Shown piece by piece: positions 8,880-62,276 of a DNA stretch of 64,000 bases. The first letter of the stretch is position 1. Each line of letters opens with the position of its first letter. Made by a program: the position numbers and the translations under genes. The stretch is from Elusimicrobiaceae bacterium (GTDB lineage: Bacteria > Elusimicrobiota > Elusimicrobia > Elusimicrobiales > Elusimicrobiaceae). The notes below the pieces were generated by a model. That model was not told the origin of the DNA, searched no databases, and saw nothing but the letters and a program-made list of their open reading frames with translations. The stretch spans positions 6,474 through 70,473 of the forward strand of contig JAZRAH010000088.1 of NCBI GenBank assembly GCA_045634505.1. The letters are read 5' to 3'.

Positions 8880-8920
8880 AGTTATAGTGTAAAAAAAATT
8901 ACGCTACTAGGCAAATAAAG

Positions 8921-8926
8921 TATAAT
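8921..8926 (+). promoter_or_regulatory. -10 box of pilin cassette 1
   Basis: TATAAT, 6 nt before ACAATTTG; same spacing in copies 2, 3, 8, 9. Confidence 0.7.
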
Positions 8927-8932
8927 GTAAGT

Positions 8933-9160
8933 ACAATTTGATTCTGTTTTTGGAAGCGTTTAAGAAACGCAGTGCTTAGCAAAGCCCTCATTCCCTCCAA
9001 AAACAGCCGTTTAACAGGTACAAAATGACGACGGTCGTTTTGTACCTAGTGTTTGCCGTTCGCAAGGACGGCAAGCCGCGGCTGTTATGTTGGGACTGGG
9101 AATGAGGACCAATACTAACAGCCGTTTTTGCATGCGTTTTCCAAACCAGACAAATTGAAT
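8933..9160 (+). ncRNA. Structured pilin-leader element, copy 1
   Basis: ACAATTTGATTCTGTTTTTGGAA...TCCAAAAACAGCCG...CGGCTGTT...AACAGCCGTTTTT...TTCCAAACCAGACAAATTG; barcode CCTCATTCCC (8986-8995)/GGGAATGAGG (9098-9107). Confidence 0.85.
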
Positions 9161-9162
9161 TA

Positions 9163-9185
9163 TAGGTCAGGTGTTAGCCTGACAT
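9163..9185. repeat. GTAG-type REP-like palindrome
   Basis: TAGGTCAGG-N-CCTGACA; 7 copies in window (9163, 19088, 19165, 20330, 56433, 56604, 61664). Confidence 0.75.
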
Positions 9186-9202
9186 AAAAAAGGAGACGTA
9201 AC

Positions 9203-9982
9203 ATGCAAAACAAAAACCAACCCGTCATTGCGAGGAGCACCGCGACGAAGCAATCCACTCAAAACAAAAAAGGCTGTCATTCCCGAGTGTTTTTATCGGG
9301 AATCTACAACGCATGCCGTTGTAAAATTGAGGGAAATTCCTTATTAAATAGGTACGTGGAAGATCCCCGACAGAAACCCTCGGGGATGACCTCTTGTGTT
9401 ACAACAGCCCGCGGCTTTACCGCCCGCTCCGGTTTTACTCTTATGGAGCTGTTAGTTGTAGTTTTAATTATTGGCATTTTGGCCGCCGTGGCTGTGCCAC
9501 AATACCAAAAAGCGGTTAAAAAAGCGCGGCTAGCAGAATTTATTTCTACCATTTCTTCTATTGAAAAAGCGGTGGATGTATGGCTTTTGGAAAATGGCGG
9601 ATACCCTGAAGATTGGGTGTGGTTTACTAGTAAGGAGAACCCTTCCCTTACTTATTCTTCGCTAGATATTAAGATGTCTTGTGCGAAAGAGGATCGCTCA
9701 TCTTGTTACACCCGGCTGGGAGGATGGGATATCTATTGTATGCCTTCTTCCTGCGGTATCAATTTATATACAACTTATGATGAAAATGGAGCAACTACAA
9801 ATACTTGGTTAGATAAGGCGTTTATTTCTGTACGCAAACGCCCGTCCGATGAAAATATATGGAAAATAGAAAGTGCTACCCAAAATACAAAATTAGTTTG
9901 CCAAGTGTGGAAGGAAACTTTTGGTACGTCTCATATGCGTGCAAGTTTTAAAGAGACGTGTGCGGAATTAGGGGTAGAATAA
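9203..9982 (+). CDS. Type IV pilin-like protein 1 (PilE-type) with 77-aa leader
   Basis: G|[28 protein letters not shown]; SD AGGAG; Cys-containing variable C-terminus. Confidence 0.9.
   Translation: MQNKNQPVIARSTATKQSTQNKKGCHSRVFLSGIYNACRCKIEGNSLLNRYVEDPRQKPSGMTSCVTTARGFTARSGFTLMELLVVVLIIGILAAVAVPQYQKAVKKARLAEFISTISSIEKAVDVWLLENGGYPEDWVWFTSKENPSLTYSSLDIKMSCAKEDRSSCYTRLGGWDIYCMPSSCGINLYTTYDENGATTNTWLDKAFISVRKRPSDENIWKIESATQNTKLVCQVWKETFGTSHMRASFKETCAELGVE
9223..9390. repeat. CGTC-type REP half plus REP doublet inside prepilin leader 1
   Basis: CGTCATTGCGAGGAGC..GACGAAGCAATCC (9223-9256) and TGTCATTCCCGAG...CTCGGGGATGAC (9275-9390). Confidence 0.8.
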
Positions 9983-18715: not shown

Positions 18716-18796
18716 AGCTTATATTTTACTATATTCTTAGAACGCGCGCGCGTGAAATTTTTTCACACCCATTGTGTTTTTTGCTATACTATGGAT

Positions 18797-19016
18797 ACAA
18801 TTTGATTCTGTTTTTGGAACCGTTTAAGAAACGGGGTGCTTTATAAGCTATCTTCGAGTCCAAAAACAGCCGATATTAGGCACACAAAGGCGACGGCCTG
18901 CGTGTGCCGAGTGTTTCCCGTCTTAATGACGGGAGGCTGCGGCTGTTGTCCTAAGACCTCGAAGATACTTAGTGTCAATAGCCGTTTTATGTGTTCCGGA
19001 TGACAGGAAAATTGAA
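18797..19016 (+). ncRNA. Structured pilin-leader element, copy 2
   Basis: TATACT 18785-18790, 6 nt, then ACAATTTGATTCTGTTTTTGGAAC; barcode TATCTTCGAG (18849-18858)/CTCGAAGATA (18958-18967). Confidence 0.85.
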
Positions 19017-19038: not shown

Positions 19039-19710
19039 ATGAACCTTACAAACAACACCCGGCGGGGGAAAACGCAAATCAAACGGGTAGGTCAGGCTCG
19101 GCCTGACAATGCCCCTAGCAAGAAGCATCCCTCAGTTCTTATAATGGGAAAGGACACCCTATGTTGTCAGGTAAAACCTGACCTACATAGCAGGCGCGGC
19201 TTTACGCTTATTGAGCTACTGGTAGTGGTACTCATCATTGGTATTTTGGCGGCGGTGGCGGTGCCACAATACCAAAAAGCAGTAAAAAAAGCGCGCTTGG
19301 CCCAACTGGATGTTACCATCAATGCCCTTACCAAAGCTATTGATCTGTACGTACTGGAAAATGGATACCAGGAAGTGTCTTTGACGGGAAATTCCGGTAA
19401 TAGCTTGGATTTAGATGTGCTATCGTGTTCATCCACCACGAGCTCTTCTTGTACGAATGAATATGGCGAGTGGGAAATTTACTGTTTAAGTGAAACCTCT
19501 TGTATGATTGGCATATATGGTCCTTATGGTACCACTCCATTTGCCGATGAACTTTATTTTTATAAATACCAAAATCAACACAATCAACAATGGGTATTTT
19601 CTATTTTGGAAGGTGACGAAGATAACCTAAAATTATTGTGTCAGTGGGCTAAGGATAAGTTTATTTTCGACAGTGATGCCACAAGTGCCTGCGCGGCAGT
19701 AGGTGTTTAA
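19039..19710 (+). CDS. Type IV pilin-like protein 2 with 54-aa leader
   Basis: G|[28 protein letters not shown]; SD AGGAG at 19026; two GTAG-type palindromes in leader (19088, 19165). Confidence 0.9.
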   Translation: MNLTNNTRRGKTQIKRVGQARPDNAPSKKHPSVLIMGKDTLCCQVKPDLHSRRGFTLIELLVVVLIIGILAAVAVPQYQKAVKKARLAQLDVTINALTKAIDLYVLENGYQEVSLTGNSGNSLDLDVLSCSSTTSSSCTNEYGEWEIYCLSETSCMIGIYGPYGTTPFADELYFYKYQNQHNQQWVFSILEGDEDNLKLLCQWAKDKFIFDSDATSACAAVGV

Positions 19711-20250: not shown

Positions 20251-20329
20251 ACTTATATTGTACCCTAAAGCAAGTGAAGTTTGCAAGGGGGTTGAACTTA
20301 AAAGAAAATGCGTCACGTAGCGTAATTTC

Positions 20330-20445
20330 GTCAGGTAAAACCTGACCTACAACGACTGAAACAAGTTCAGCAGGACGATGGAAAAAGTGCAGGGTTCCCC
20401 CTCTCCTGTCCTGCGGACATCCTCCCCCTCTAGGGGGGAGGGGGA
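20330..20445. repeat. Cluster of REP-like half-elements
   Basis: GTCAGGTAAAACCTGACCTAC; CTGAAACAAGTTCAG; CCCCCTCTCC..GTCCTGCGGAC..CTCCCCCTCTAGGGGGGAG. Confidence 0.7.
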
Positions 20446-22449: not shown

Positions 22450-25400
22450 TTAGTGGGCCGTAGCTTCGGCGGCCGGGGGAACATCCCCGCCCCGGTGGAA
22501 GAAACGGTGTAATCTGGCTTTGAGTTGTTTCCAACCGTATTTGGCTCCTTGTACCATGCTGGAGTTAGCAAGCATGCCAGGGGTCAACGCAACGCTGGCG
22601 GCTAAGGCGGCCCCGGCAATGGCAATATCTAAAGAAGCAATCCCCGTTTGGGACACAGTTTCGCGTAATAGAGCGGCCGGGATAGCCGCGGCGGGCATGG
22701 TGTAAGTAATTAAGAGGGCAATTTCGCGCTTATATTTGGGATGTAAACCTACCATATATTCATACATTTGCGAGAAGAAGTTGCTGATACCAAAACATGC
22801 AATAATGGCCCCCGTCGCTAACATCCCTACATTGCTGCCGGCTAAGGTCATCATTGCGGGCCCCGCTACAGAGGCTAAAGAGGACACGGCATACATGCTC
22901 CCGCCGCTCATGCGTTGGCTTAAGACGTTGCCTACAATACGCCACCCAAACATACAACCATATAAGAGTAACCCTACAATCCCGGTGGCGACTGTGCCGT
23001 TGCCTACCAGTTCGCGCATGGCAAAGGCTAAGCCGTTGGAAAGCCCTAATTCGCCCAGGGTGGCCAGTGTCATAGCTCCTAGCGCGGCGGGTAACCCGGC
23101 CATTACCATCACATCTTTTAATTTAACATTACGGTTGCCTAGTTTATCAAACGCTTGTTGCAACGCCTCGCGCGCCGCTAAGGCTTGCTGTGGCGTGTAA
23201 TTTTGGGAGAGAGCAAGCATATTTTCTAATTCTTCCCCTACTTCTTGTTCGTGCTTGGCTGTTAAAGTGTTAATGGTGGTTTTGGTCTTACGCGCTTCTA
23301 CCGGGGTTAAGGCGTCAATAGCGGACTTGATTTTTTTAGCGGCTTGAATAATAACGGGATGATCGGCAGAAATTTCAGCAGGGTTTGTTTTGTGGATTTC
23401 CAACGTAGCGGCTTGGGCCACATCTTGCAAATTGTTTTGCAGTACCGTTTGATTGAGTGGGAACGCATCTTTATAACGGGTTTTCATCACTTGGCGTAGA
23501 GTGTACAAACTGTAAATGGAGTACGGAACGTAACTGGCAGAAAAGTCCAACCCCAGGTCATACCCCAAGGATTTGCCGGCAATATTGGCTAGCCAAGGGA
23601 AAGACAAGAATAGCATGGTCCCTAAGTTTTTAAACATAGCTCCGCGTTGGTAGAACACAATGTCGCGCAGGGATTTGTTGGATTTTTTAGTGAGCACTTC
23701 ATAGCCGCGCTTTAAGAAGAACTTAGCATTGTACGTTGGCGGTACGACGTTGGCTCCTTGAACTGCCTCTTCCTTTTGGAAAGAGTTCGTTTGCGGTACA
23801 ATGCCGCGGTTAGCACTCATCAGTAGGTTTTGTACAAAACGGGTAATGTTGGTGCCCAGTGCAATTAGGACACTGGAGGTTAAAAACCCGGCTAGTTGCC
23901 AGTTTCCCATGACACCGGCCCCGATATGCCCATATAGACCACTGGCCAGTGCAATCAATCCGCCAGCAGTAAACATAGAGGCCCCCACCCGGAAAACAGC
24001 GGCTTCCCCGTATTGTTTGAGAAACGGGTGGACGAACCCCATCATAGCGGGCAGCACGTTGTTAATCCCTAACATAATAGCACTGGAGGTGGTTTCCCCT
24101 AAGGTGGACAGGTCATTTAAAACAGGGGCTAAGGTTTTACCTAATCCAATTTGCAAGCTAGGGACTAAGTAAGTAAGAGGAACCATTTTTTCGGAGGTGG
24201 AAAAGACGCCCAATTTAAACGGTTTTTGCGGGTACATAGCTAAAATTTGCGTCCAGTATTTACTTTCCGTTTTGGGCAGGCGAACAAAAGCGTTGGTGAG
24301 TTCGCTTATTTCCCCTTCTCCGTTGCGGAAATAGAGAGAGCCGTTGTAGGACCAGATGTGCCCTTTTTCGGGGTCTTTAATGCCGCTAAGCAGGCTGCTA
24401 TCTACTTCGGCCATGATGACGGGCGGTTCTTGTAAATTGGTGTCATATACGGGCAGTGTAACGGATTTTTTAGGAGAGCTAGTACGTTGGATTTTAATGC
24501 GCATGGGGCGGGCTAAGTTAAGCTGACGGGCCCCGGCTAAGAGGGTGTTTAATTCCCCGTTCAACGTGCAGAGTGTAAAGTAAAAGTGGTCGGGACGTTT
24601 GGCGGGGACGGTTAAATTGCGCAGTTCAAAAATGTGGTTTTTATCTAAGGCTAAGCGGTTATATTCGGAGGAGAAGTTTTTGAGCGTATTGCTGACGGTT
24701 AAATCTACGTTGCGCAAAATGTGTTCTGTATTATCTTCCCCTACTAGCGTTAGTTTAAAACCGTCTGCGCCGACGGAAACTTCTTGCACTTCATCTACAC
24801 CTAGCAAGTCCCCGCCTACAACGGCTTTGGAAGGGATTTCTACTTCGGCAAATACAGGGCGGACGTTGCTTTCGTGTAGGCCGGCTTCTTCAACGGGGCT
24901 TTCATTAGGGACGCGTTGGTGGAGTTTTCGCCGGGCCCAAGTCCCAAAGCGTTCCAATGCGTCAGTAACTACAAAAACGGGAATGCCGCTATACAATACC
25001 CCGCTACGCGTGGCGGTAGGTTTTGCCGTTTGCGCCGACGGTTGGGGAACTGCTTGTGCAACGGTGGTGGGGGCTGTTTGTAATGTAGGAGCCGCGGGAA
25101 GTTGCGGCTTATTAGGAGCACTGAGCGTGAGCCATTGTTCGGTGGCTTGGACGGACGGATCGGCGTGTAAGTGGTTGGGGGCAAACGTTTTCTTTAAGAA
25201 GTTGGCAAGTTGCTTATCCGCTGGGGTGGGTTCCAGTTGTGCATAAGCTGGGGGCACCGTAAGGGGGAGATGTTGCTTGGCAATATAGGCGGTAACCCCG
25301 GACAAGGCATTTTTAGGTTCCAGTTCGCTAAGCCATTTTTCTAACGCTTGGTAGGCTTGCATGCGCAGTAGCCCGCGTGCCGTAATAAGGGCGGCGGTAT

Positions 25401-25986
25401 CTTCAAACAAGGTACCTTGGGCTTGTTTGTAAAAATGTAAGAGGATGGGGGCGTTTTCTTGGGTGCCGACTATACCTAAGGCGGAGGCATCAGCAAGTGT
25501 ATATTGTACGGAAAGTACGGCGGGATGAGAGGGGTTTTGGGCGGCAAAAGAGAGGAAAGCGGGTAAATCCGTTTGGGCAACTTGCAAGGCTTTTTGGGTA
25601 TGTTTTAAATGGGACGCATATGCTTGGGCGGCTTGGGTACGTTGGGCAGGGGTAACAGTACCGGCAATTAAAGAGAGGGAGACAAAATCACTCCGTAAAA
25701 TAGGGGCGCGCAAGTCAGCAGGTTTATTTAAAATTTCAGTGGCCAAACCTTGGGTATTGCCCATAACAATACGGGCAGAAACCGTGGAGGGCACCGCAGC
25801 GGCTTGGGCCAAAACACGGCGGTTTAAATTTTGGTTTAGTTTAGTAAGCGCTCGCTTATCGGCCAAGGTAGTAGTTTTGCGTAGGCCTTTTATAACGCCG
25901 CGGCCGGCTTTGATTTGCGCCATAGCCGGAGTGATACTACTTACCAAGATGCTTATGCTCAGCACGAGCGATAGTAGCTTATGCAT
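22450..25986 (-). CDS. 1178-aa protein: signal peptide, large soluble N-terminal region, C-terminal 6+6 TM MFS-like domain
   Basis: Twelve hydrophobic segments in two groups separated by a long loop; WRIVGNVLSQRM resembles an MFS loop motif. Confidence 0.6.
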   Translation of the reverse strand: MHKLLSLVLSISILVSSITPAMAQIKAGRGVIKGLRKTTTLADKRALTKLNQNLNRRVLAQAAAVPSTVSARIVMGNTQGLATEILNKPADLRAPILRSDFVSLSLIAGTVTPAQRTQAAQAYASHLKHTQKALQVAQTDLPAFLSFAAQNPSHPAVLSVQYTLADASALGIVGTQENAPILLHFYKQAQGTLFEDTAALITARGLLRMQAYQALEKWLSELEPKNALSGVTAYIAKQHLPLTVPPAYAQLEPTPADKQLANFLKKTFAPNHLHADPSVQATEQWLTLSAPNKPQLPAAPTLQTAPTTVAQAVPQPSAQTAKPTATRSGVLYSGIPVFVVTDALERFGTWARRKLHQRVPNESPVEEAGLHESNVRPVFAEVEIPSKAVVGGDLLGVDEVQEVSVGADGFKLTLVGEDNTEHILRNVDLTVSNTLKNFSSEYNRLALDKNHIFELRNLTVPAKRPDHFYFTLCTLNGELNTLLAGARQLNLARPMRIKIQRTSSPKKSVTLPVYDTNLQEPPVIMAEVDSSLLSGIKDPEKGHIWSYNGSLYFRNGEGEISELTNAFVRLPKTESKYWTQILAMYPQKPFKLGVFSTSEKMVPLTYLVPSLQIGLGKTLAPVLNDLSTLGETTSSAIMLGINNVLPAMMGFVHPFLKQYGEAAVFRVGASMFTAGGLIALASGLYGHIGAGVMGNWQLAGFLTSSVLIALGTNITRFVQNLLMSANRGIVPQTNSFQKEEAVQGANVVPPTYNAKFFLKRGYEVLTKKSNKSLRDIVFYQRGAMFKNLGTMLFLSFPWLANIAGKSLGYDLGLDFSASYVPYSIYSLYTLRQVMKTRYKDAFPLNQTVLQNNLQDVAQAATLEIHKTNPAEISADHPVIIQAAKKIKSAIDALTPVEARKTKTTINTLTAKHEQEVGEELENMLALSQNYTPQQALAAREALQQAFDKLGNRNVKLKDVMVMAGLPAALGAMTLATLGELGLSNGLAFAMRELVGNGTVATGIVGLLLYGCMFGWRIVGNVLSQRMSGGSMYAVSSLASVAGPAMMTLAGSNVGMLATGAIIACFGISNFFSQMYEYMVGLHPKYKREIALLITYTMPAAAIPAALLRETVSQTGIASLDIAIAGAALAASVALTPGMLANSSMVQGAKYGWKQLKARLHRFFHRGGDVPPAAEATAH

Positions 25987-26397: not shown

Positions 26398-26630
26398 ACA
26401 ATTTAATCTGTTTTTGGAAGCCGAAAGGCACCGTTGCCAAGGGCAACAATTATCACTCCAGAAACAACCCAATCGGGTGCAAGGGAAACGGACTAATTAC
26501 CCGTTTATCTTGCGCCAAATGTTTTCCGTTTTGCGGAGAGCTGCGGCTGTTTGTGTTTCATGGGTGTGATAATTCATGGGGCTATGCAGCCGTTGTTTTA
26601 TGGGTGCGTTTTCCAAACGGACAAATTGAA
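26398..26630 (+). ncRNA. Structured pilin-leader element, copy 3
   Basis: TATACT 26386-26391 + 6 nt; barcode AATTATCAC (26448-26456)/GTGATAATT (26566-26574); ends TTCCAAACGGACAAATTGAA. Confidence 0.85.
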
Positions 26631-26654
26631 TTAAATGAATAGTGAGGAAAACGT

Positions 26655-27308
26655 ATGAATCACAAAAACACCCGGCGGGGTAATACGCAACAAGTAATAA
26701 ATAAAAATTGTCATTCCAAATTTAATTTGGAATCTCACCACTTTTTACTGCCTAAGGTGAGATCCCGTATCAAGTACGGGATGACGGGCTTATTAAATAA
26801 CGGCGGGTTTACCCTCATTGAGCTATTAGTAGTGGTGTTGATTATTGCTATTTTGGCGGCGGTGGCACTGCCGCAGTATCAAATGGCTGTACTGAAGAGC
26901 CGGGCCGCACAAATGATACCGCTAGTGCGTAGTCTGTCTGTGGCACAAGAAACCTATTATTTAGCCAATGGACAATATGCAGAGACTTTTGATGAATTAG
27001 ATGTGTCTTTGCCTGGCAAAACAAATCAATCTTGTGTTTATCTGCGTCATGGGGACTGTGTGGTTTTGAAAAATGGGTGGGAAATCAATTTCACAGGGGA
27101 TACTCACAAGGGGGGCGTAGAGGCATATTTACCAGACAGCGGTTTTAAAATTACGTCATACTGGTTAAATACAGATGATGATATAGACAGAATTGGCCTA
27201 TACGGGAATATAACTTGTGTCGTATTTCCTGGATTAAACGAACAAGGGAAACGGATATGTTCCAACTTGGGAAGGCCAACCTCTAATGAAAGATTTTTTA
27301 AACTGTAA
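26655..27308 (+). CDS. Type IV pilin-like protein 3 with 51-aa leader
   Basis: G|[28 protein letters not shown]; REP doublet 26709-26786 in leader. Confidence 0.9.
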
Positions 27309-29751: not shown

Positions 29752-30600
29752 ATGCGTTTAAAAGCTGCACTTGCTAGTTTATTACTGCTCTGCCCGTGTG
29801 CGTTATGCTACGGGCAGTTGCGTTTTGCAAGCGTAGGGGGCGAAAAAGGCTACTCGGCCATGCGGGCCAGTTACCGCGCGGACCTGGACAACGGGTTTAT
29901 TTTAATTCCGCAGTACGGCTACTACCGCATGAGTGATAAAGAAATTGACGAGGCAGGGTCCACTTCCCGCTACGGTTTGGAAGGCCAATATGAAATCAAT
30001 GATTCGTGGAAAGTATTGGCACAACTGGTTTGGCAGCCCCAAACGTTGGGATATGAAGCCGTGGGGTATGGGGGCGGAATCGCCTGGCAGCCGTTTTATT
30101 ATTTCAGCGGGATTAAAGAACCTTGGCTACGGGTAAAATTGGGGCAAGACCGCACCCGCAGTTATGTGGATGCAAACGGCCGGGATTTGCCTGACGGGTT
30201 TAGACAGGTGGCTATTTCCAGTTTTGCCGAGGCAGAAATGGATGTACTGCATTTTCATTTGCAAGCGGCGTGGCAGAAAGTGATAAAATATAGTAGCCGT
30301 GTGCCGCATGATGTTACGTTTAGTTGGGCAGAAATTCCGTATATGACGGCCGTTTTGCAAGGATATATTAAAGACGCCTATGCGTTGCGGGTAAGTTATC
30401 CCACCCCGTTTATTTCGCCGTATGTGTCCTTGGCACGGTATCACTACGACCAACGGCGCCAAGTGGCCGGAGCAGTGAGTGCCGGGCTTCACGTAAAATT
30501 ATGGGGAGCCGACGTAACGGGTGGTATAGAGGTTTTTGAACCACGGCGCGATAAAAACCGTAAAACATATTTTTCGCTTTCGTTAGATGTGCCTATGTAA
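29752..30600 (+). CDS. Putative outer-membrane beta-barrel protein
   Basis: Signal peptide, aromatic-rich alternating strands. Confidence 0.55.
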   Translation: MRLKAALASLLLLCPCALCYGQLRFASVGGEKGYSAMRASYRADLDNGFILIPQYGYYRMSDKEIDEAGSTSRYGLEGQYEINDSWKVLAQLVWQPQTLGYEAVGYGGGIAWQPFYYFSGIKEPWLRVKLGQDRTRSYVDANGRDLPDGFRQVAISSFAEAEMDVLHFHLQAAWQKVIKYSSRVPHDVTFSWAEIPYMTAVLQGYIKDAYALRVSYPTPFISPYVSLARYHYDQRRQVAGAVSAGLHVKLWGADVTGGIEVFEPRRDKNRKTYFSLSLDVPM

Positions 30601-35412: not shown

Positions 35413-36066
35413 TTAATAGTTGCAATGTTTGTCAGGCCCACATATACTTTTGCATAAATTTTGGAAATTTTCTCCTCCGGCATAGCACCAAAAACGGTTG
35501 GGTTGATATTTCTTTTCATTAAAAGGGAATGCATATTCTAATGAAAGAAGGCCTGAATCTGTGGGTTGGTATATGCCGGCGGCTCTGTCTTTTCCGATGT
35601 TTGAAGAATTGTAATAAGCGCGGTTACAATCTAAGGTAAAGTATTTTTTTTCGTTTACTAAGTGTTTTTTTCCGTCTAATTCATACTCGTTAGGGGCATC
35701 TATGCCTAATTCTTCACAATTGGCGGCGTATGTGCCGTTCTCCAAATAGTAAACATCTTGCATTTCTTTGATGTGTTTTACAAGCAGGAGAAGTTCGGTT
35801 ACACGGGATTTATCCACCGCCTTTTGATATTGCGGCACCGCCACCGCCGCCAAAATACCAATGATGAGAACAACGACCAATAGTTCAATGAGCGTAAAGC
35901 CCCGCGCTGTTGTTCTATGAAGTGTCATCCCCGAGTGTCTCTGTCGGGGATCTCCTCCTTGCGCGTCGTTAAAAGCGGTAGGGATTCCCGACAACATTCC
36001 TCGGGAATGACCCTTTTTATTTACTACTGGTTGCGTACTCCCCCGCCGGGTATTTTTATTTTGCAT
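35413..36066 (-). CDS. Type IV pilin-like protein 4 with 56-aa leader
   Basis: G|[28 protein letters not shown]; REP doublet 35923-36011 in leader. Confidence 0.9.
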   Translation of the reverse strand: MQNKNTRRGSTQPVVNKKGHSRGMLSGIPTAFNDAQGGDPRQRHSGMTLHRTTARGFTLIELLVVVLIIGILAAVAVPQYQKAVDKSRVTELLLLVKHIKEMQDVYYLENGTYAANCEELGIDAPNEYELDGKKHLVNEKKYFTLDCNRAYYNSSNIGKDRAAGIYQPTDSGLLSLEYAFPFNEKKYQPNRFWCYAGGENFQNLCKSICGPDKHCNY

Positions 36067-38611: not shown

Positions 38612-39274
38612 ATGCAAAACAAAAATGTAACTATAAAAAATAATGATTATTCCCAACAAAAATACTCGGGAATAACTATTACAAGAAACTGTCGTCATGC
38701 TGAACTCGTTTCAGCATCTAGTCGTTATGATAACAACCAGACCCTGAAACAAGTTCAGGGTGACGGCAGTAGCGGCTTTACGCTCATTGAGCTGTTAGTT
38801 GTGGTACTTATTATTGGCATTTTGGCCACCGTGGCGTTGCCACAATACCAAAAAGCGGTGTATAAAAGCCGTGCCGTGGAAGCAGTAACTGTGCTAAAGG
38901 CACTTGTGGATGCGCAAGAAATTTATTACTTAGCCAATGGGGAATATACGGATGATATTTCAAAATTAGACGTAAATATCCCGGCTGAGTTAATAAAATC
39001 TTCCTGGGCGGCAGAGCCCCTATTTGAAGACAAGTATTCTTATACATGTGCTAGAAAGAGGGAATGTGGCGCCAGCGCAAAAAATAATAATTTGCCCGAT
39101 TTTCAATTTAATTTTAGGCATAGGGACGATGTGAATGCGGGAAAGTTCTATTGTAATTTAGGGGCCGGTAATTCTAAAACAGATATGGCTAAATCTATTT
39201 GCCAGAGCATGGGCCGTTTGGATGAAACCCGTACGGAAGCGTGGGCTGTGGGTAAGTATTTTATTATCAATTAA
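38612..39274 (+). CDS. Type IV pilin-like protein 5 with 55-aa leader
   Basis: G|[28 protein letters not shown]; REP doublet 38693-38765 in leader. Confidence 0.9.
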   Translation: MQNKNVTIKNNDYSQQKYSGITITRNCRHAELVSASSRYDNNQTLKQVQGDGSSGFTLIELLVVVLIIGILATVALPQYQKAVYKSRAVEAVTVLKALVDAQEIYYLANGEYTDDISKLDVNIPAELIKSSWAAEPLFEDKYSYTCARKRECGASAKNNNLPDFQFNFRHRDDVNAGKFYCNLGAGNSKTDMAKSICQSMGRLDETRTEAWAVGKYFIIN

Positions 39275-47425: not shown

Positions 47426-48007
47426 ATGAAAAAAGAAAATGTAATTGTCATTTGTCCCCCTTGTGGGGAAAACGTCGCGTTAGCGACAAAAAGAGGGGCC
47501 AATAAAGTATTACCTATTTTGCCCCTCCTACCCCGCCTTACGGCGGTACTCCCTCCACAAGGGAGGGAGATAACAGCCCGTGGCTTTAAGCTCATTGAGC
47601 TCTTAGTCGTGGTACTCATTATTGGCATATTAGCCGCCGTAGCCGTGCCACAATATCAATTAGCTGTAGAAAAATCGCGCGCAGAGACAGCCCCTTCTGT
47701 ATTAAAGACCATCTGGACAGCCCAGCAAATATATTATCTTGCCAATGGTACATACGCTTCTACATTTGATGTTTTAGATATAGAAATACCGCAAAATGAA
47801 TATTTTACCTATCAGCAAGACAGTATGTCTGTTTTTGCCGTTAGTACACGAAAAAATTACACAATATCTTTTCGCTTTAATCGACAAATTTATGAATGGA
47901 TTGTATGTTATGCTACTTTAGACACTGATGTTGAACAAGCCAGACGGATTTGTAAAAATTTAGGGGCAGATATTAGTAGTGGAGATCGTTGGCCAATCGT
48001 AAAATAG
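47426..48007 (+). CDS. Type IV pilin-like protein 6 with 53-aa leader
   Basis: G|[28 protein letters not shown]; C/G-rich palindromic doublet 47455-47570 in leader. Confidence 0.9.
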   Translation: MKKENVIVICPPCGENVALATKRGANKVLPILPLLPRLTAVLPPQGREITARGFKLIELLVVVLIIGILAAVAVPQYQLAVEKSRAETAPSVLKTIWTAQQIYYLANGTYASTFDVLDIEIPQNEYFTYQQDSMSVFAVSTRKNYTISFRFNRQIYEWIVCYATLDTDVEQARRICKNLGADISSGDRWPIVK

Positions 48008-50105: not shown

Positions 50106-50660
50106 ATGGAAAAGACATTTACATTAAAAACTGTTAAAAAAGTAATCGGGCTGGAAGAAACCCCCAGCACGCAAGGGTTGGCGCGCAGTTTGGCCGCCAC
50201 AGAGACCGACGGCACACTTATTTTGGCGTGCCACCAAACGCAAGCCAAGGGCAAAGAGGGGACCTCATTTTACGCGGGTGAGGGCGGCGTTTATTTTACG
50301 CTTATTTTGGACCCGCAAACTAACATTTCTTCGCAAAAATTAACGCTGGCCATGTCTAACGCGATTAGTGATGTGATTTACAGCGTACTGGGCATTAAAA
50401 CCAAGCTCTCTAAAACGGGCGATATTTTATGTTACGACAAATCCGCACGCACCTGGAAAAAATGTGCCGGCATCTTGGCCGAGCAAACCGAAACGGGAAC
50501 ATGGCTTTTAGGCGCGGGGATTTATTTAAATAACCGCCTGCCCATTGGGCTACGCACCACGTGTATTAGCCTTAAAGCTATTTTAGGCAGTGAGACCAGC
50601 AAAGAGCTGTTTTTAGATGAAGTTTTAAACAACTTTTGGAAGGAATACGCGTTTTTGTAG
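50106..50660 (+). CDS. Biotin-protein-ligase-like catalytic domain with degenerate motifs
   Basis: PSTQ, QT.AKG, GGVYFTLIL, KKCAGIL, GAGIYLN. Confidence 0.7.
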   Translation: MEKTFTLKTVKKVIGLEETPSTQGLARSLAATETDGTLILACHQTQAKGKEGTSFYAGEGGVYFTLILDPQTNISSQKLTLAMSNAISDVIYSVLGIKTKLSKTGDILCYDKSARTWKKCAGILAEQTETGTWLLGAGIYLNNRLPIGLRTTCISLKAILGSETSKELFLDEVLNNFWKEYAFL

Positions 50661-50897: not shown

Positions 50898-51642
50898 ATG
50901 CACATGTTTAGTCATACCCGGCGGGGTTTCACGCAAGACAGTCCTTGTCAAAATAAACGTCATTCCCGAGTGTCGTTATCGGGAATCCCCACCTTAGTCC
51001 CTCAAAATGGAGAAGATCCCCGATTACAGATCTCGGGGATGACGCTTTATAGAATAACAGCTCGTGGCTTTTCTCTACGCCGTCATCCTGAACTTGATTC
51101 AGGATCTTCAACGCTTGCCGTTGTCGTTCATAAACAGCGTGCGTGGAAGATGCCAAATCAAGTTTGGCATGACAACTTTACTGAATAATGGCGGGTTCAC
51201 CCTCATTGAACTCTTGGTCGTAGTACTCATCATTGGTATATTGGCGGCAGTGGCTTTGCCACAATATCAAAAAGCGGTTATGAAAAGTAGGCTCGGGCAG
51301 GTTCACAGTGTGCTGCGCACGTTGCGTACGGGTATAGATAATTATATATTGGCCAACGGAGCCGATGGGACAATCTTTTTAGGATATGATGAGGATAAAA
51401 CCTCGTTGTTAGACATTAACTTTGGTACCCAATTTGATTGTTCTGACCATGGAGACGATATTGCTGAAGGCTGTTTGCTTCACGATTTTGTGTATAGAGC
51501 CACCACTGATTATGTGGAAGCATACGATAAGGAACAACGTTTTTTAATAGGATATGACAACCGGGGTGAACAAGGTTGGCAGCCCAGTTGTGCTTCAGGA
51601 GGAGAATGGGCATGGATTTGTGATTATTGGAATAGTTTATAA
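50898..51642 (+). pseudogene. Type IV pilin-like gene 7; leader frame stops at 51188, pilin frame is +1 (possible restart at ATG 51169)
   Basis: SD GAGGTG then MHMFSHTRRGFTQ; two REP doublets 50958-51044 and 51081-51173; G|FTLIELL in the other frame. Confidence 0.75.
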
Positions 51643-56393: not shown

Positions 56394-56625
56394 AGATCCC
56401 CGATAAAGACTCTCGGGGATGACGCTAATAGATGTCAGGCTTACACCTGACCTATAAGATATCAGCCAAACCATTCCGGCCGTCATTGCGGGGAACGAAG
56501 GGACGAAGCAATCTTATAAACAACATAGATTGCCGCGCTTACGCTCGCAATGACGACAACGACAGATCCCCGACAAAGACACTCGGGAATGACACTTATT
56601 TAATGTCAGGCATAGCCTGACCTAC
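56394..56625. repeat. BIME-like mosaic of REP-like palindromes
   Basis: AGATCCCCG..CGGGGATGAC (56394, 56564), TGTCAGG..CCTGACCTA (56433, 56604), CGTCATTGCG...CGCAATGACG (56481-56555). Confidence 0.82.
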
Positions 56626-56667
56626 AACAACTGCCTATCTGACGCCAGATTTTGTTATAATGTAAGT

Positions 56668-56896
56668 ACAATTTGATTCTGTTTTTGGAACCGTATGCAG
56701 AATACGGATAGCTTAAAAGGCCATAGACAGTCCAAAAACAGCCGATACTAAGGTGCAGACGGGGACTATAGCCCTGCCTGTGCCGAATTGTTTCCCGCTT
56801 GCTAAAAGCGGGGAACTACGGCTGTTATGGCGTGTCACTGTCTAGGCGTGCTATAGCAGCCGTTTTATGTGCGTTTTCAGGGCAGAGTAAAATTGA
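56668..56896 (+). ncRNA. Structured pilin-leader element, copy 8
   Basis: TGnTATAAT + 6 nt; 8921-8955 and 56656-56690 identical; barcode TAGACAGT (56724-56731)/ACTGTCTA (56837-56844). Confidence 0.85.
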
Positions 56897-56919
56897 AAAT
56901 TAAAACGAGAGGTAAACGT

Positions 56920-57597
56920 ATGAACAAAAGACTTGCCCGGCGGGGAATAACGCAACAATTAATCAAAGGCAATTCAGTAAATATCCCTGAACTTGTTTCA
57001 GGGTCTTCCACGCAAGCTGCTGTGCAACAAAGGCCCCAACGACAGGCGTTGAAGATGCCGAAACAAGTTCGGCAATATCCTTATTTAACAAGGGGCCAGG
57101 GATTTACCCTGATTGAACTGTTGGTGGTTGTGCTAATTATAGGTATATTGGCTGCTATTGCCTTGCCGCAATACCAAAAAGCAGTATTAAAAAGTAGAAT
57201 GGTGGATGCAATTGGTATGTTGCGTACCATACAAAAGGCACAAGAAGTATATTATTTAAATCATGGGAATTATACAACCGATTTAGATGATTTGGATATA
57301 GAAATTCCAGCAAATCAAAAAGCTACTTCTTTTGCATATTCAAGTGAGTCTTATCCTTTGCGGTATTTTTACAGTTGCCATGCAAATGGATTTTGCGTAG
57401 CAGCGGCGCAGGATGATAATTTACCAATTATAGAAGTACACATGATGCATGCATTTTCTGGTAACAACAATCAGATGACTTGTGCTGCATTTAAAAACAA
57501 TACTTATAACAAAAGTAATTTGGCGGAGAAGCTTTGCCGAAGTATGGGGCCTGTTAGCCACACATGGGAAGGTACGGTATATTATGAAATACGTTAG
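56920..57597 (+). CDS. Type IV pilin-like protein 8 with 61-aa leader
   Basis: G|[28 protein letters not shown]; degenerate REP doublet about 56980-57078. Confidence 0.9.
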   Translation: MNKRLARRGITQQLIKGNSVNIPELVSGSSTQAAVQQRPQRQALKMPKQVRQYPYLTRGQGFTLIELLVVVLIIGILAAIALPQYQKAVLKSRMVDAIGMLRTIQKAQEVYYLNHGNYTTDLDDLDIEIPANQKATSFAYSSESYPLRYFYSCHANGFCVAAAQDDNLPIIEVHMMHAFSGNNNQMTCAAFKNNTYNKSNLAEKLCRSMGPVSHTWEGTVYYEIR

Positions 57598-61377: not shown

Positions 61378-61597
61378 ACAATTTGATTTGTTTTTGAGCC
61401 GTATGTGGAATACGGGTTGCTTCGTAAGAAGTATTCAGCAAAGTCAAAAACAGCTGAACAAAGGCACACAAAGGCGACGGCTGGCGTGTGCCGAGTGTTT
61501 CCTGCATTTTTTGTGGGGGCTGCGGCTGTTATGTTTGGTTACTTTGCTGAGACCTGACAAAGCAGCCGATTTTGTTGGCTCTGAATGGATCAATTGA
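61378..61597 (+). ncRNA. Structured pilin-leader element, copy 9
   Basis: TATACT + 6 nt; barcode TCAGCAAAGT (61435-61444)/ACTTTGCTGA (61541-61550); closing GAGCC/GGCTC compensation. Confidence 0.85.
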
Positions 61598-61622
61598 ATA
61601 GATAAACTAAGGAGCAAGCAAA

Positions 61623-62276
61623 ATGACGAACAAAAAGAATGTAGTAAATGAAAGAGTAACGTATAGGTCAGGTGCAAACCTGACAATGGCCTGTAAAGGC
61701 CAGTATAATGGATGTTGGGTTAGCACCCAACCTATAAAGAATACGGTTGCGAAGGGTTTTACCCTCATTGAACTGTTGGTCGTGGTGCTTATCATTGGTA
61801 TTTTGGCGGCGGTAGCCGTGCCTCAATATCAATTTGCCGTTGAAAAATCCCGGATGGCCGAGGCCCTTGTACAATTAAATTCGCTACAAAGGGCAATAGA
61901 TTCGTATTTGTTGGAAAACGGATATCCTGAAGGTGCAGAAAGTTTCTTGGGAAACCAGACAGATGGCAATGGTAAGTTGGTTATAGATGTTACCGGCTCG
62001 CTAGATTGCACCGTAAATAATGGACAGCACTGTGCCAGCCGTGATTTTTTATATAGCTCAGTATGTGACGGTGAACATAATTTCTGTGCCTTAGAAGCGC
62101 AACGGGTATTATCCGGTTATGAATCTACGGACAGCAACACAAAATATCTGTTAACGCTTTCAAAAACGCAGGATACCTGGACTAAAACATGTTATTATAT
62201 TGAAGAAAATTATCCGCAAGGTAAAAAACTGTGTGACAGTTTACAAACCCAAGGGTGGATTAGTGAGGAGTATTAA
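61623..62276 (+). CDS. Type IV pilin-like protein 9 with 45-aa leader
   Basis: G|[28 protein letters not shown]; GTAG-type palindrome 61664-61685 in leader. Confidence 0.9.
   Translation: MTNKKNVVNERVTYRSGANLTMACKGQYNGCWVSTQPIKNTVAKGFTLIELLVVVLIIGILAAVAVPQYQFAVEKSRMAEALVQLNSLQRAIDSYLLENGYPEGAESFLGNQTDGNGKLVIDVTGSLDCTVNNGQHCASRDFLYSSVCDGEHNFCALEAQRVLSGYESTDSNTKYLLTLSKTQDTWTKTCYYIEENYPQGKKLCDSLQTQGWISEEY

Follow-up and report, generated by a model that had tools for sequence, protein, structure and literature searches.

The window considered here, i.e. the whole 64-kb stretch analysed from contig JAZRAH010000088.1 of an Elusimicrobiaceae bacterium (G+C content, 48%), carries nine prepilin-type genes whose leader-coding segments hold palindromes of the repetitive extragenic palindrome (REP) type. 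These genes, designated below by the position of their G(-1) codon (9431, 19198, 26805, 35901 on the reverse strand, 38774, 47582, 51193, 57100 and 61755), all display the hallmarks of type IV prepilins, namely G(-1), a hydrophobic residue at +1, E(+5) and a hydrophobic N-terminal helix, and all nine share the N-terminus G↓F(T/K)L(I/M), where the arrow marks the peptidase site. REPs have probably colonised the leader-coding segment of these genes, where they would be kept only if in frame and free of stop codons, and would be tolerated since the leader is discarded.

The gene at 9203-9982 on the forward strand (gene 9431), an open reading frame (ORF) devoid of in-frame stops that encodes protein P0001, illustrates this organisation. 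It is preceded by the Shine-Dalgarno sequence (SD) AAGGAG (9190-9195, +) and comprises a leader of 77 aa (9203-9433) followed by the mature pilin, which starts with F at 9434. The leader successively includes three features, all on the forward strand. The first is a CGTC-tagged REP with an ATTGC stem (9222-9256, CGTCATTGCGAGGAGCACCGCGACGAAGCAATCC), which is translated as VIARSTATKQS and bracketed by two direct 11-nt copies of CAAAACAAAAA (9206-9216 and 9260-9270), leading to a 54-nt in-frame unit; the same module is found in the homologs P0011, P0012, P0015, P0027 and P0041. The second is a CGTC/TGTC REP doublet (9275-9390), made of hairpins at 9276-9303 (+), 9305-9323 (central) and 9363-9390 (-) and translated as CHSRVFLSGIYNACRCKIEGNSLLNRYVEDPRQKPSGM, which folds as a single long hairpin (z = -3.7) and whose module is present in the leaders of 36 of the 120 closest homologs. 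The third is a duplication of the cleavage-site codons GGYTTTACY (9413-9439), in which GGCTTTACC, carrying a relic 'GFT' (9413-9421), precedes GGTTTTACT, carrying the functional G↓FT (9431-9439). A further REP, of the GTAG/ATAG type, can be read directly on the reverse strand in the 5' untranslated region (5'UTR), just upstream of the SD (9161-9184).

Several features suggest that such long leaders are coding. Type IVa prepilin leaders comprise about 5-7 aa and type IVb leaders about 15-30 aa. Here, the leaders measured from the distal, SD-equipped ATG to G(-1) comprise, for the eight genes other than gene 51193 and in the order given above, 77, 54, 51, 56, 55, 53, 61 and 45 aa, the ATG-to-G distance being a multiple of 3 in eight of the nine genes. 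The 452 codons of these eight leaders contain no in-frame stop, whereas the two alternative frames, counted over all nine leaders, hold 38 and 39 stops, and the chance of finding none at that density would be about 1e-14. Furthermore, a strong SD (AGGAG, GAGG or AAGGAGG) lies 6-9 nt before the distal ATG of all nine genes, whereas no SD precedes the internal ATGs of the nine window leaders. The leaders have a net charge of +3 to +10 and no hydrophobic run, which would be compatible with prepilin processing. The whole leader is likely to be translated from the distal ATG, and would then be cleaved off by the prepilin peptidase. The charge of each reading frame was also considered as a sign of protein-level selection and was dropped, as it does not single out the frame used.

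Alternatively, the long leaders could be untranslated, the true start lying near G↓FT, for example at the ATG of the REP terminus GGGATGAC, and the REPs would then be post-transcriptional elements located in a long 5'UTR. Indeed, four of the nine genes (9431, 26805, 35901 and 51193) possess an in-frame ATG located 9-17 codons before G, supplied by the ATGAC terminus of the (-) REP itself, and gene 51193 can make a pilin only from such a near-G start. In addition, it has been cautioned that many N-terminal 'intragenic' REPs may be extragenic, translation possibly starting downstream (Di Nocera et al., PMC3733652). However, the REP-supplied ATGs lie inside a hairpin stem and lack the SD found at every distal ATG, genes 38774 and 47582 carry no internal ATG at all, eight of the nine frames stay open over 45-77 codons where the other two accumulate 38-39 stops, and the distal ATG corresponds in position to the start codon of an ortholog with a short leader (see below). 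Untranslated leaders therefore seem quite unlikely as a general explanation.

The census of hairpins (perfect stem of at least 7 bp, loop of 3-14 nt) reveals a very uneven distribution over the window, with 21 hairpins in 1,627 nt of leader (12.9 per kb), 25 in 6,721 nt of intergenic DNA (3.7 per kb), five in 4,455 nt encoding mature pilins (1.1 per kb) and 45 in 51,197 nt of other coding sequences (CDSs; 0.9 per kb). A scan for the CGTC family (GTC followed by a stem beginning with AT, at most one mismatch), with mononucleotide shuffles as control, retrieved 14 strict copies in the window, as against about one expected in shuffles (maximum, four). Twelve of them lie in the 1.6 kb of leader and two are intergenic (56396 and 56566), and none was found in the 51 kb of other CDSs. 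Leaders are thus strongly preferred by REPs, yet they are not their exclusive location. Most of what the initial annotation had described is borne out by these data: palindromes are present at all the coordinates that it listed and in nine leaders out of nine, they are placed in frame within leader-coding segments that are stop-free in eight of the nine genes, and strict CGTC copies are absent from the housekeeping CDSs that it had reported to be free of repeats (about 58 ORFs of the window). The range of 45-77 aa that it gave for all leaders holds for these eight genes and fails for gene 51193, whose leader ORF is +1 out of frame.

The members of the main family share the same layout, in which a (C/T)GTC tag is followed by a stem of 8 bp with A-T pairs at its first two positions, a loop, the complementary arm and a tail that is CT or CC. 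All 14 strict copies have GTC directly 5' of the stem, preceded in most cases by C or T (for example, T at 9275 and C at 38693, 50958 and 51081). The stem is 8 bp long in 13 copies and 9 bp long in one, starts with AT in 13 and with AC in one (38741), and is devoid of mismatches except in the copy at 56566, which has one. The loop comprises 9 nt in eight copies, 5 nt in five (consensus CTTGW) and 3 nt in one. Twelve hairpins form six (+)/(-) leader pairs whose members are about 23-60 nt apart (9276/9363, 26710/26762, 35924/35984, 38694/38741, 50959/51016 and 51082/51150). A second family displays a GTAG or ATAG tag beside a 7-bp GTCAGG or GTTGGG stem; GTAG-type copies (19166-19182, 20330-20346 and 56605-56621) end with ...CCTGACCTAC(A), and ATAG replaces GTAG in the copies at 9161-9184 and 61714-61731. 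C/G-rich palindromes constitute a third type in the window. The fixed reading frame of the doublets was considered as a proof of site-specific insertion and was abandoned: the other frames usually hold stops, including the TGA of the conserved ATGAC end, and selection alone would therefore give the same frame.

Comparison with orthologs shows that the long leaders originated by insertion. The gene at 9203-9982 sits between a GDPD gene and MscL, and two syntenic orthologs were found (loci L081 and L082, proteins P0002 and P0003). P0003 is 77% identical and has a leader of only 8 aa (MKLHKKRG↓FT), the SD and ATG of L082 occupying the same place relative to the 5' RNA element (described below) and to the AAATTGAAAT box as the distal ATG of the window gene. 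Because this short-leader ortholog starts at the same position, the distal ATG is the ancestral start, and about 66 extra codons have been added inside the leader. P0002, which is 91% identical in its mature part, shares the 5'UTR, the MQNKN start and the ...RGFTARSG↓FT end with P0001, whereas the leader interior of L081 (about 190 nt) shows no relationship and consists of different, C/G-rich palindromes. The leader interior thus turns over fast.

Pairs of empty and filled sites were also found. The empty site of L086 and L084 reads ...GGGGTTTYACG|CTNAT..., and L087, which is syntenic with L086, carries at this site 57 additional nt that include one CGTC hairpin and are bracketed by GGGGTTTCACG and GGGTTTTACC. 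Likewise, L089 (filled) and L090 (empty), which are not syntenic and share the same leader start, differ by the same 57-nt unit, located between GGGGATTTACC and GGGGTTTACC. Both inserts are in frame (19 codons) and flanked by a 9-10-bp direct repeat, GGGNTTYACS. As in Rickettsia palindromic elements (RPEs), the length of the insert is a multiple of 3, it contains no stop and homologs without it exist (L086/L084 for L087 and L090 for L089). As in miniature inverted-repeat transposable elements (MITEs), the inserts are flanked by target-site-like duplications (GGGNTTYACS in L087 and L089, CAAAACAAAAA at 9206/9260); these repeats are imperfect and may be recombination junctions instead of target duplications. 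The L088 leader, which reaches 155 aa and carries three GCTTTACY copies between successive REPs, probably results from nested insertions.

The hairpins could also have been domesticated by their host, to stabilise the mRNA, to pace translation downstream of the 5' leader RNA, or to act on DNA as recombination signals that shuffle leaders and pilin bodies among paralogs. Their density is about 10-fold that of ordinary intergenic DNA and they occur in all nine genes. Their stems vary among copies (ATTCCCGA, ATCCCCGA, ATGCTGAA, ATCCTGAA, ATGCCAAA, ATCCCGTA and others) and nevertheless stay perfectly complementary, loops and flanks being conserved; each doublet folds as one very stable long hairpin (z about -3.6); and near-identical leaders are found on different pilin bodies (P0001, P0011, P0012, P0015, P0027 and P0041). 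However, compensated stems are seen in REP families in general and call for no host function. Genes differ in how many elements they carry, of which type, in which order and where, and so do even 91%-identical orthologs; orthologs with leaders of 4-10 aa and no element are common, and the same families form ordinary extragenic clusters both here and in other genomes. Domestication, which is not needed to explain the pattern, is therefore considered rather improbable. A search of the region 8880-9450 against Rfam (E <= 10) matched only three plant or animal microRNA precursor models, which are chance matches to the long REP-doublet hairpin; at the gathering threshold, the sole match was a tRNA.

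According to the favoured explanation, insertions would occur between the ancestral start, which carries a short basic leader (M-x-N-K-N-T-R-R-G), and the G↓FTLIELL peptidase site, the survivors being those that add a multiple of three bases without any stop codon. This would lead to prepilins with basic, non-hydrophobic leaders of 45-77 aa, and up to 155 aa in relatives. Because the leader is expected to be cut off at G(-1), leaving the mature pilin unchanged, such insertions would be near neutral. Three factors could drive the process: the leader would be a permissive site inside an expressed gene; a recurrent insertion point would lie immediately 3' of the G-F-T codons (GGNTTYACN), each insertion duplicating these codons, one copy restoring the cleavage site downstream and the other persisting upstream as a 'GFT' relic; and the elements would probably spread among pilin paralogs by recombination across highly conserved flanks.

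Data from the 120 closest homologs bear on these proposed steps. Their leaders comprise at most 12 aa in 33 cases and more than 30 aa in 71 cases (maximum, 155 aa), and nearly all have a net positive charge. They are modular, the doublet peptide (C/G)HSRxxLSGIYNACRC...VEDPRxxxSGMT being present in 36 and RH(A/P)ExxS(A/G)S in 14. Among leaders longer than 12 aa, 40 internal [GA]FT relics were counted, as against 1.8 in shuffles (about 20-fold), each of them directly followed by a repeat-encoded module, and at least six different junction types were distinguished. It is conceivable, although we advance it tentatively, that a REP/MITE-like lineage homes to GGNTTYACN, duplicates its 9-10-bp target, adds a multiple of three bases, regenerates G↓FT and so disarms itself, stacked hits giving rise to translated and removed leaders of 45-155 aa. 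More generally, the recurrent insertion pattern may reflect either the target preference of an enzyme or recombination among paralogs with conserved flanks.

Taken to its extreme, the latter possibility would dispense with site-specific transposition: a few ancient insertions would have been spread and concatenated by unequal recombination or gene conversion among paralogs, with crossovers at GGNTTYAC or at the sequence encoding the N-terminal helix. The flanks are indeed highly conserved (5' RNA, MxNKNTRRG start and about 90 nt of N-terminal coding sequence), leaders are shared by different pilin bodies, the chimeric out-of-frame leader of gene 51193 resembles a crossover within a REP, and the same REP in other environments lies beside a pilin gene in none of 85 copies, so that no intrinsic pilin targeting is evident. 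However, different REP types each follow a GFT relic, the 57-nt unit occupies an identical place in genes whose leader starts differ, and the 11-nt duplication at 9206/9260 differs in sequence and is not a paralog-conserved crossover site. As a complete explanation, recombination alone is thus very improbable.

Colonisation of discarded leaders by selfish REPs, as proposed in the initial annotation, is supported in that it fits the rapid turnover seen in L081 and the existence of short-leader orthologs, although several points weigh against it. First, gene 51193 is out of frame and, given the in-frame ATG that it possesses nine codons upstream of G, could start with a short leader, a possibility that holds at least for this gene. 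Second, to our knowledge, described type IV leaders comprise about 5-30 aa, as against 45-155 aa here. Third, the initial annotation calls for a correction, as the same REP families are also present outside leaders, namely in a 5'UTR (9161-9184) and within two intergenic clusters, so that leaders are not their sole home. Fourth, tolerance alone does not explain the roughly 10-fold excess in leaders over ordinary intergenic DNA. Fifth, the homolog proteins are gene-caller predictions and many leaders are shared by descent, so that the counts given above are not independent events. Finally, direct repeats flanking insertions are not expected for the IS200/RAYT mechanism, and the 9-11-bp target duplication does not fit a RAYT or IS200-type enzyme. 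The partner gene suggested by the initial annotation (RAYT/TnpA-REP or GIY-YIG) failed to appear: a Pfam scan of the approximately 58 non-pilin ORFs of the window identified no transposase, RAYT, Y1_Tnp or GIY-YIG nuclease, and neither the window nor the compared loci showed an autonomous partner whose ends match. Furthermore, CGTC REPs have no known dedicated transposase (PMC3733652).

The closest relatives of the window pilin genes belong to gut or rumen Elusimicrobiaceae metagenome-assembled genomes. Among species representatives of Elusimicrobiota, short leaders (3-15 aa) are the rule, and long frames filled with REPs were found in two of about 35 sampled pilin genes; in other Elusimicrobiaceae loci, REPs are extragenic. 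Some 'long ORFs' overlapping REPs in such loci were regarded as spurious ORFs over intergenic REP clusters, as their translations are not protein-like. At least 120 environmental metagenome contigs of very different origin (including L091-L170) carry the exact hairpin GTCATGCTGAA-N5-TTCAGCATCT. In these copies, the loop is mostly CTTGT and the hairpin usually has an inverted partner within A+T-rich intergenic DNA. None of the 85 metagenome copies examined is followed by an in-frame pilin motif, and intrinsic targeting of pilin genes by this hairpin was therefore rejected. The REP family, including this remarkably widespread stem variant, is thus cosmopolitan and normally extragenic, the pilin-leader niche being specific to this lineage. 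A database search with a 48-aa repeat-encoded peptide returned a single candidate.

The other prepilin genes of the window carry diverse combinations of the same elements. Gene 19198 (19039-19710, +; 54-aa leader) contains two GTAG-type REPs in opposite orientation (19091-19107 and 19166-19182), and gene 26805 (26655-27308, +; 51-aa leader) a CGTC REP pair (26710-26733, +, and 26762-26785, -). A CGTC REP doublet (35924-35951 and 35984-36011) occupies the 56-aa leader of gene 35901 (35413-36066, -), and a degenerate REP (38647-38675) precedes a CGTC pair with 5-nt loops (38694-38717, +, and 38741-38764, -) in the 55-aa leader of gene 38774 (38612-39274, +). Gene 47582 (47426-48007, +; 53-aa leader), in which the cleavage site is G↓FK, carries small C/G-rich palindromes between 47455 and 47575, such as CTCCCTCC/GGAGGGAG at 47549-47569. 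REPs with 5-nt loops (56985-57003, +, and 57056-57074, -) are found in the 61-aa leader of gene 57100 (56920-57597, +), and GTAG/ATAG-type REPs (61667-61684 and 61714-61731) in the 45-aa leader of gene 61755 (61623-62276, +). A tenth pilin gene of the same genome, which encodes P0048 and is located outside the window on the 97-kb source contig, has a leader of 95 aa with the same modules and a GFT relic.

The leader of gene 51193 (50898-51642, +) is disrupted. Its leader ORF (50898-51188), which stays open for 96 codons across four CGTC REPs (50959, 51016, 51082 and 51150), ends 5 nt upstream of the G codon in a frame shifted by +1; initiation at the in-frame ATG at 51166 would yield MTTLLNNGG↓FT. 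The last REP has the reading frame seen in gene 57100, and the 3' junction belongs to the 26805 type, which suggests a recombinant leader, with a crossover in the last REP between two paralog types that read it in different frames. This gene may be a pseudogene or be expressed from the ATG at 51166.

In two intergenic clusters, palindromes of the CGTC, ATTGC-stem, GTAG and C/G-rich types are intermingled in an arrangement reminiscent of bacterial interspersed mosaic elements. The first (56396-56621), which lies directly upstream of a pilin promoter, includes two copies of the CGTC type (56396 and 56566), a pair with ATTGC stems (about 56477 and 56527) and two copies of the GTAG type (about 56434 and 56605). 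The second (20325-20441) includes a GTAG-type copy (20330-20346), a degenerate copy with a 5-nt loop and a C/G-rich palindrome (20421-20441).

The pilin genes stand singly among housekeeping genes, including those encoding phosphotransferase system (PTS) components, LepA, SecA, a release factor, serine hydroxymethyltransferase, DnaX, RecR, ComEC, UvrB, Mur ligases and PheS. The Pfam domain N_methyl (PF07963) is recorded on homologs of the window pilins, and no gene encoding a prepilin peptidase (PilD) was found in the window. Three ORFs have no Pfam match (22450-25986, -, 1178 aa; 29752-30600, +, 282 aa; 50106-50660, +, 184 aa).

A conserved structured RNA of about 200 nt is found upstream of all nine pilin genes and of the orthologs L081, L082, L084 and L086-L088. 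It starts just after a TATAAT box (for example, 8932-9131, 18796-18991 and 56666-56868) and includes a helix a/a' (CTGTTTTTGGA/TCCAAAAACAG), a long-range helix b/b' of 8-11 bp whose sequence differs in all 13 copies tested and is always complementary, and two internal hairpins with compensatory changes. The segment AACAGCCG is present in two identical copies that share a single partner, CGGCTGTT, for which they compete, the second copy being followed by a U-tract, and this layout is riboswitch- or attenuator-like. No match to this RNA was found in Rfam 15, whether at E <= 10 or at the gathering threshold. This RNA presumably corresponds to the first control layer implied by the initial annotation, which had evoked a second one for the hairpins. 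Between the terminator-like U-tract and the SD, most pilin genes carry a conserved AAATTGAAAT-like box (9150-9160, 26628-26640, 56895-56906 and 61590-61600), which also occurs in the short-leader ortholog L082 (2960-2975). In the 5'UTR of gene 9431, the REP at 9161-9184 has a GTCAGG stem, while that located at the same position in L081 (216-238) has a GTTGGG stem, both arms being changed; this could be a replacement or a compensatory change.

REPs and in-frame RPEs are already known, but the pilin-leader niche and giant leaders appear unreported; in the literature searched, no description was found of a gene family with leaders made of stacked REPs or of duplicated cleavage-site codons marking insertions. 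Such leaders would exemplify selfish DNA that lives within genes at almost no cost, in the part of the protein that is discarded. From a practical point of view, gene callers and pilin classifiers based on leader length will mis-annotate such genes. If the leaders are truly processed, those accepted by the prepilin peptidase exceed in length, by a factor of five to ten, the leaders of all characterised substrates. Furthermore, the pairs of empty and filled sites provide a tractable system for studying what moves CGTC-type REPs and, if homing does occur, a cleaved signal peptide would be a dedicated landing pad for mobile DNA.

Comparison with known systems supports the view that the window palindromes are genuine REPs, mostly CGTC/TGTC-tagged and usually arranged in opposite-orientation doublets, that fit the CGTC and GTAG superfamilies; this REP identity, put forward in the initial annotation, agrees with most of the defining features (PMC3733652). 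The CGTC-tagged superfamily, which includes dRS3 from Neisseria and RPE-4 and RPE-6 from Rickettsia (Di Nocera, De Gregorio & Rocco 2013), is defined by a CGTC tag (TGTC or CCTC being allowed), an 8-9-bp stem with A-T at positions 1 and 2 and a loop of 4-5 nt, some families having other loop lengths; its units are mostly opposite-orientation dimers with spacers of 20-100 bp and occasionally intragenic (PMC3733652). The window copies likewise display an unpaired CGTC/TGTC tag, an 8-9-bp A-T-started stem, a short loop and tail and opposite dimers, without any transposase nearby and with some copies intragenic. However, half of them have a 9-nt loop instead of 4-5 nt, and their tail is CT or CC instead of CCA. 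In addition, their host belongs to Elusimicrobiota, and most of them lie inside prepilin leaders and not downstream of genes, whereas the hosts reported for CGTC REPs belong to five phyla that do not include Elusimicrobia, with no mention of pilins or leaders (PMC3733652).

GTAG REPs and REPINs, which are associated with RAYT, resemble the copies at 19166, 20330 and 56605 by their GTAG tag beside a short G+C-rich stem-loop with a 7-bp stem and by their inverted pairs, but several window copies carry ATAG and the 64-kb window has no RAYT gene. RPE-1 and its relatives also are palindromes inserted in frame that preserve the ORF and have homologs without the insert. However, RPEs are scattered across many unrelated genes and retained in the final protein, whereas the window insertions concentrate in a segment expected to be removed and stack at the G-F-T codons with duplication. 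Finally, the window prepilins share G(-1), F(+1), E(+5), a hydrophobic alpha-1 helix and a basic leader with the class III signal peptides of type IV prepilins, but their leaders, 45-77 aa long in eight window genes and up to 155 aa in relatives, fall outside the range of short leaders (about 5-30 aa) and, unlike known type IV leaders, are built almost entirely of repeat-encoded modules.

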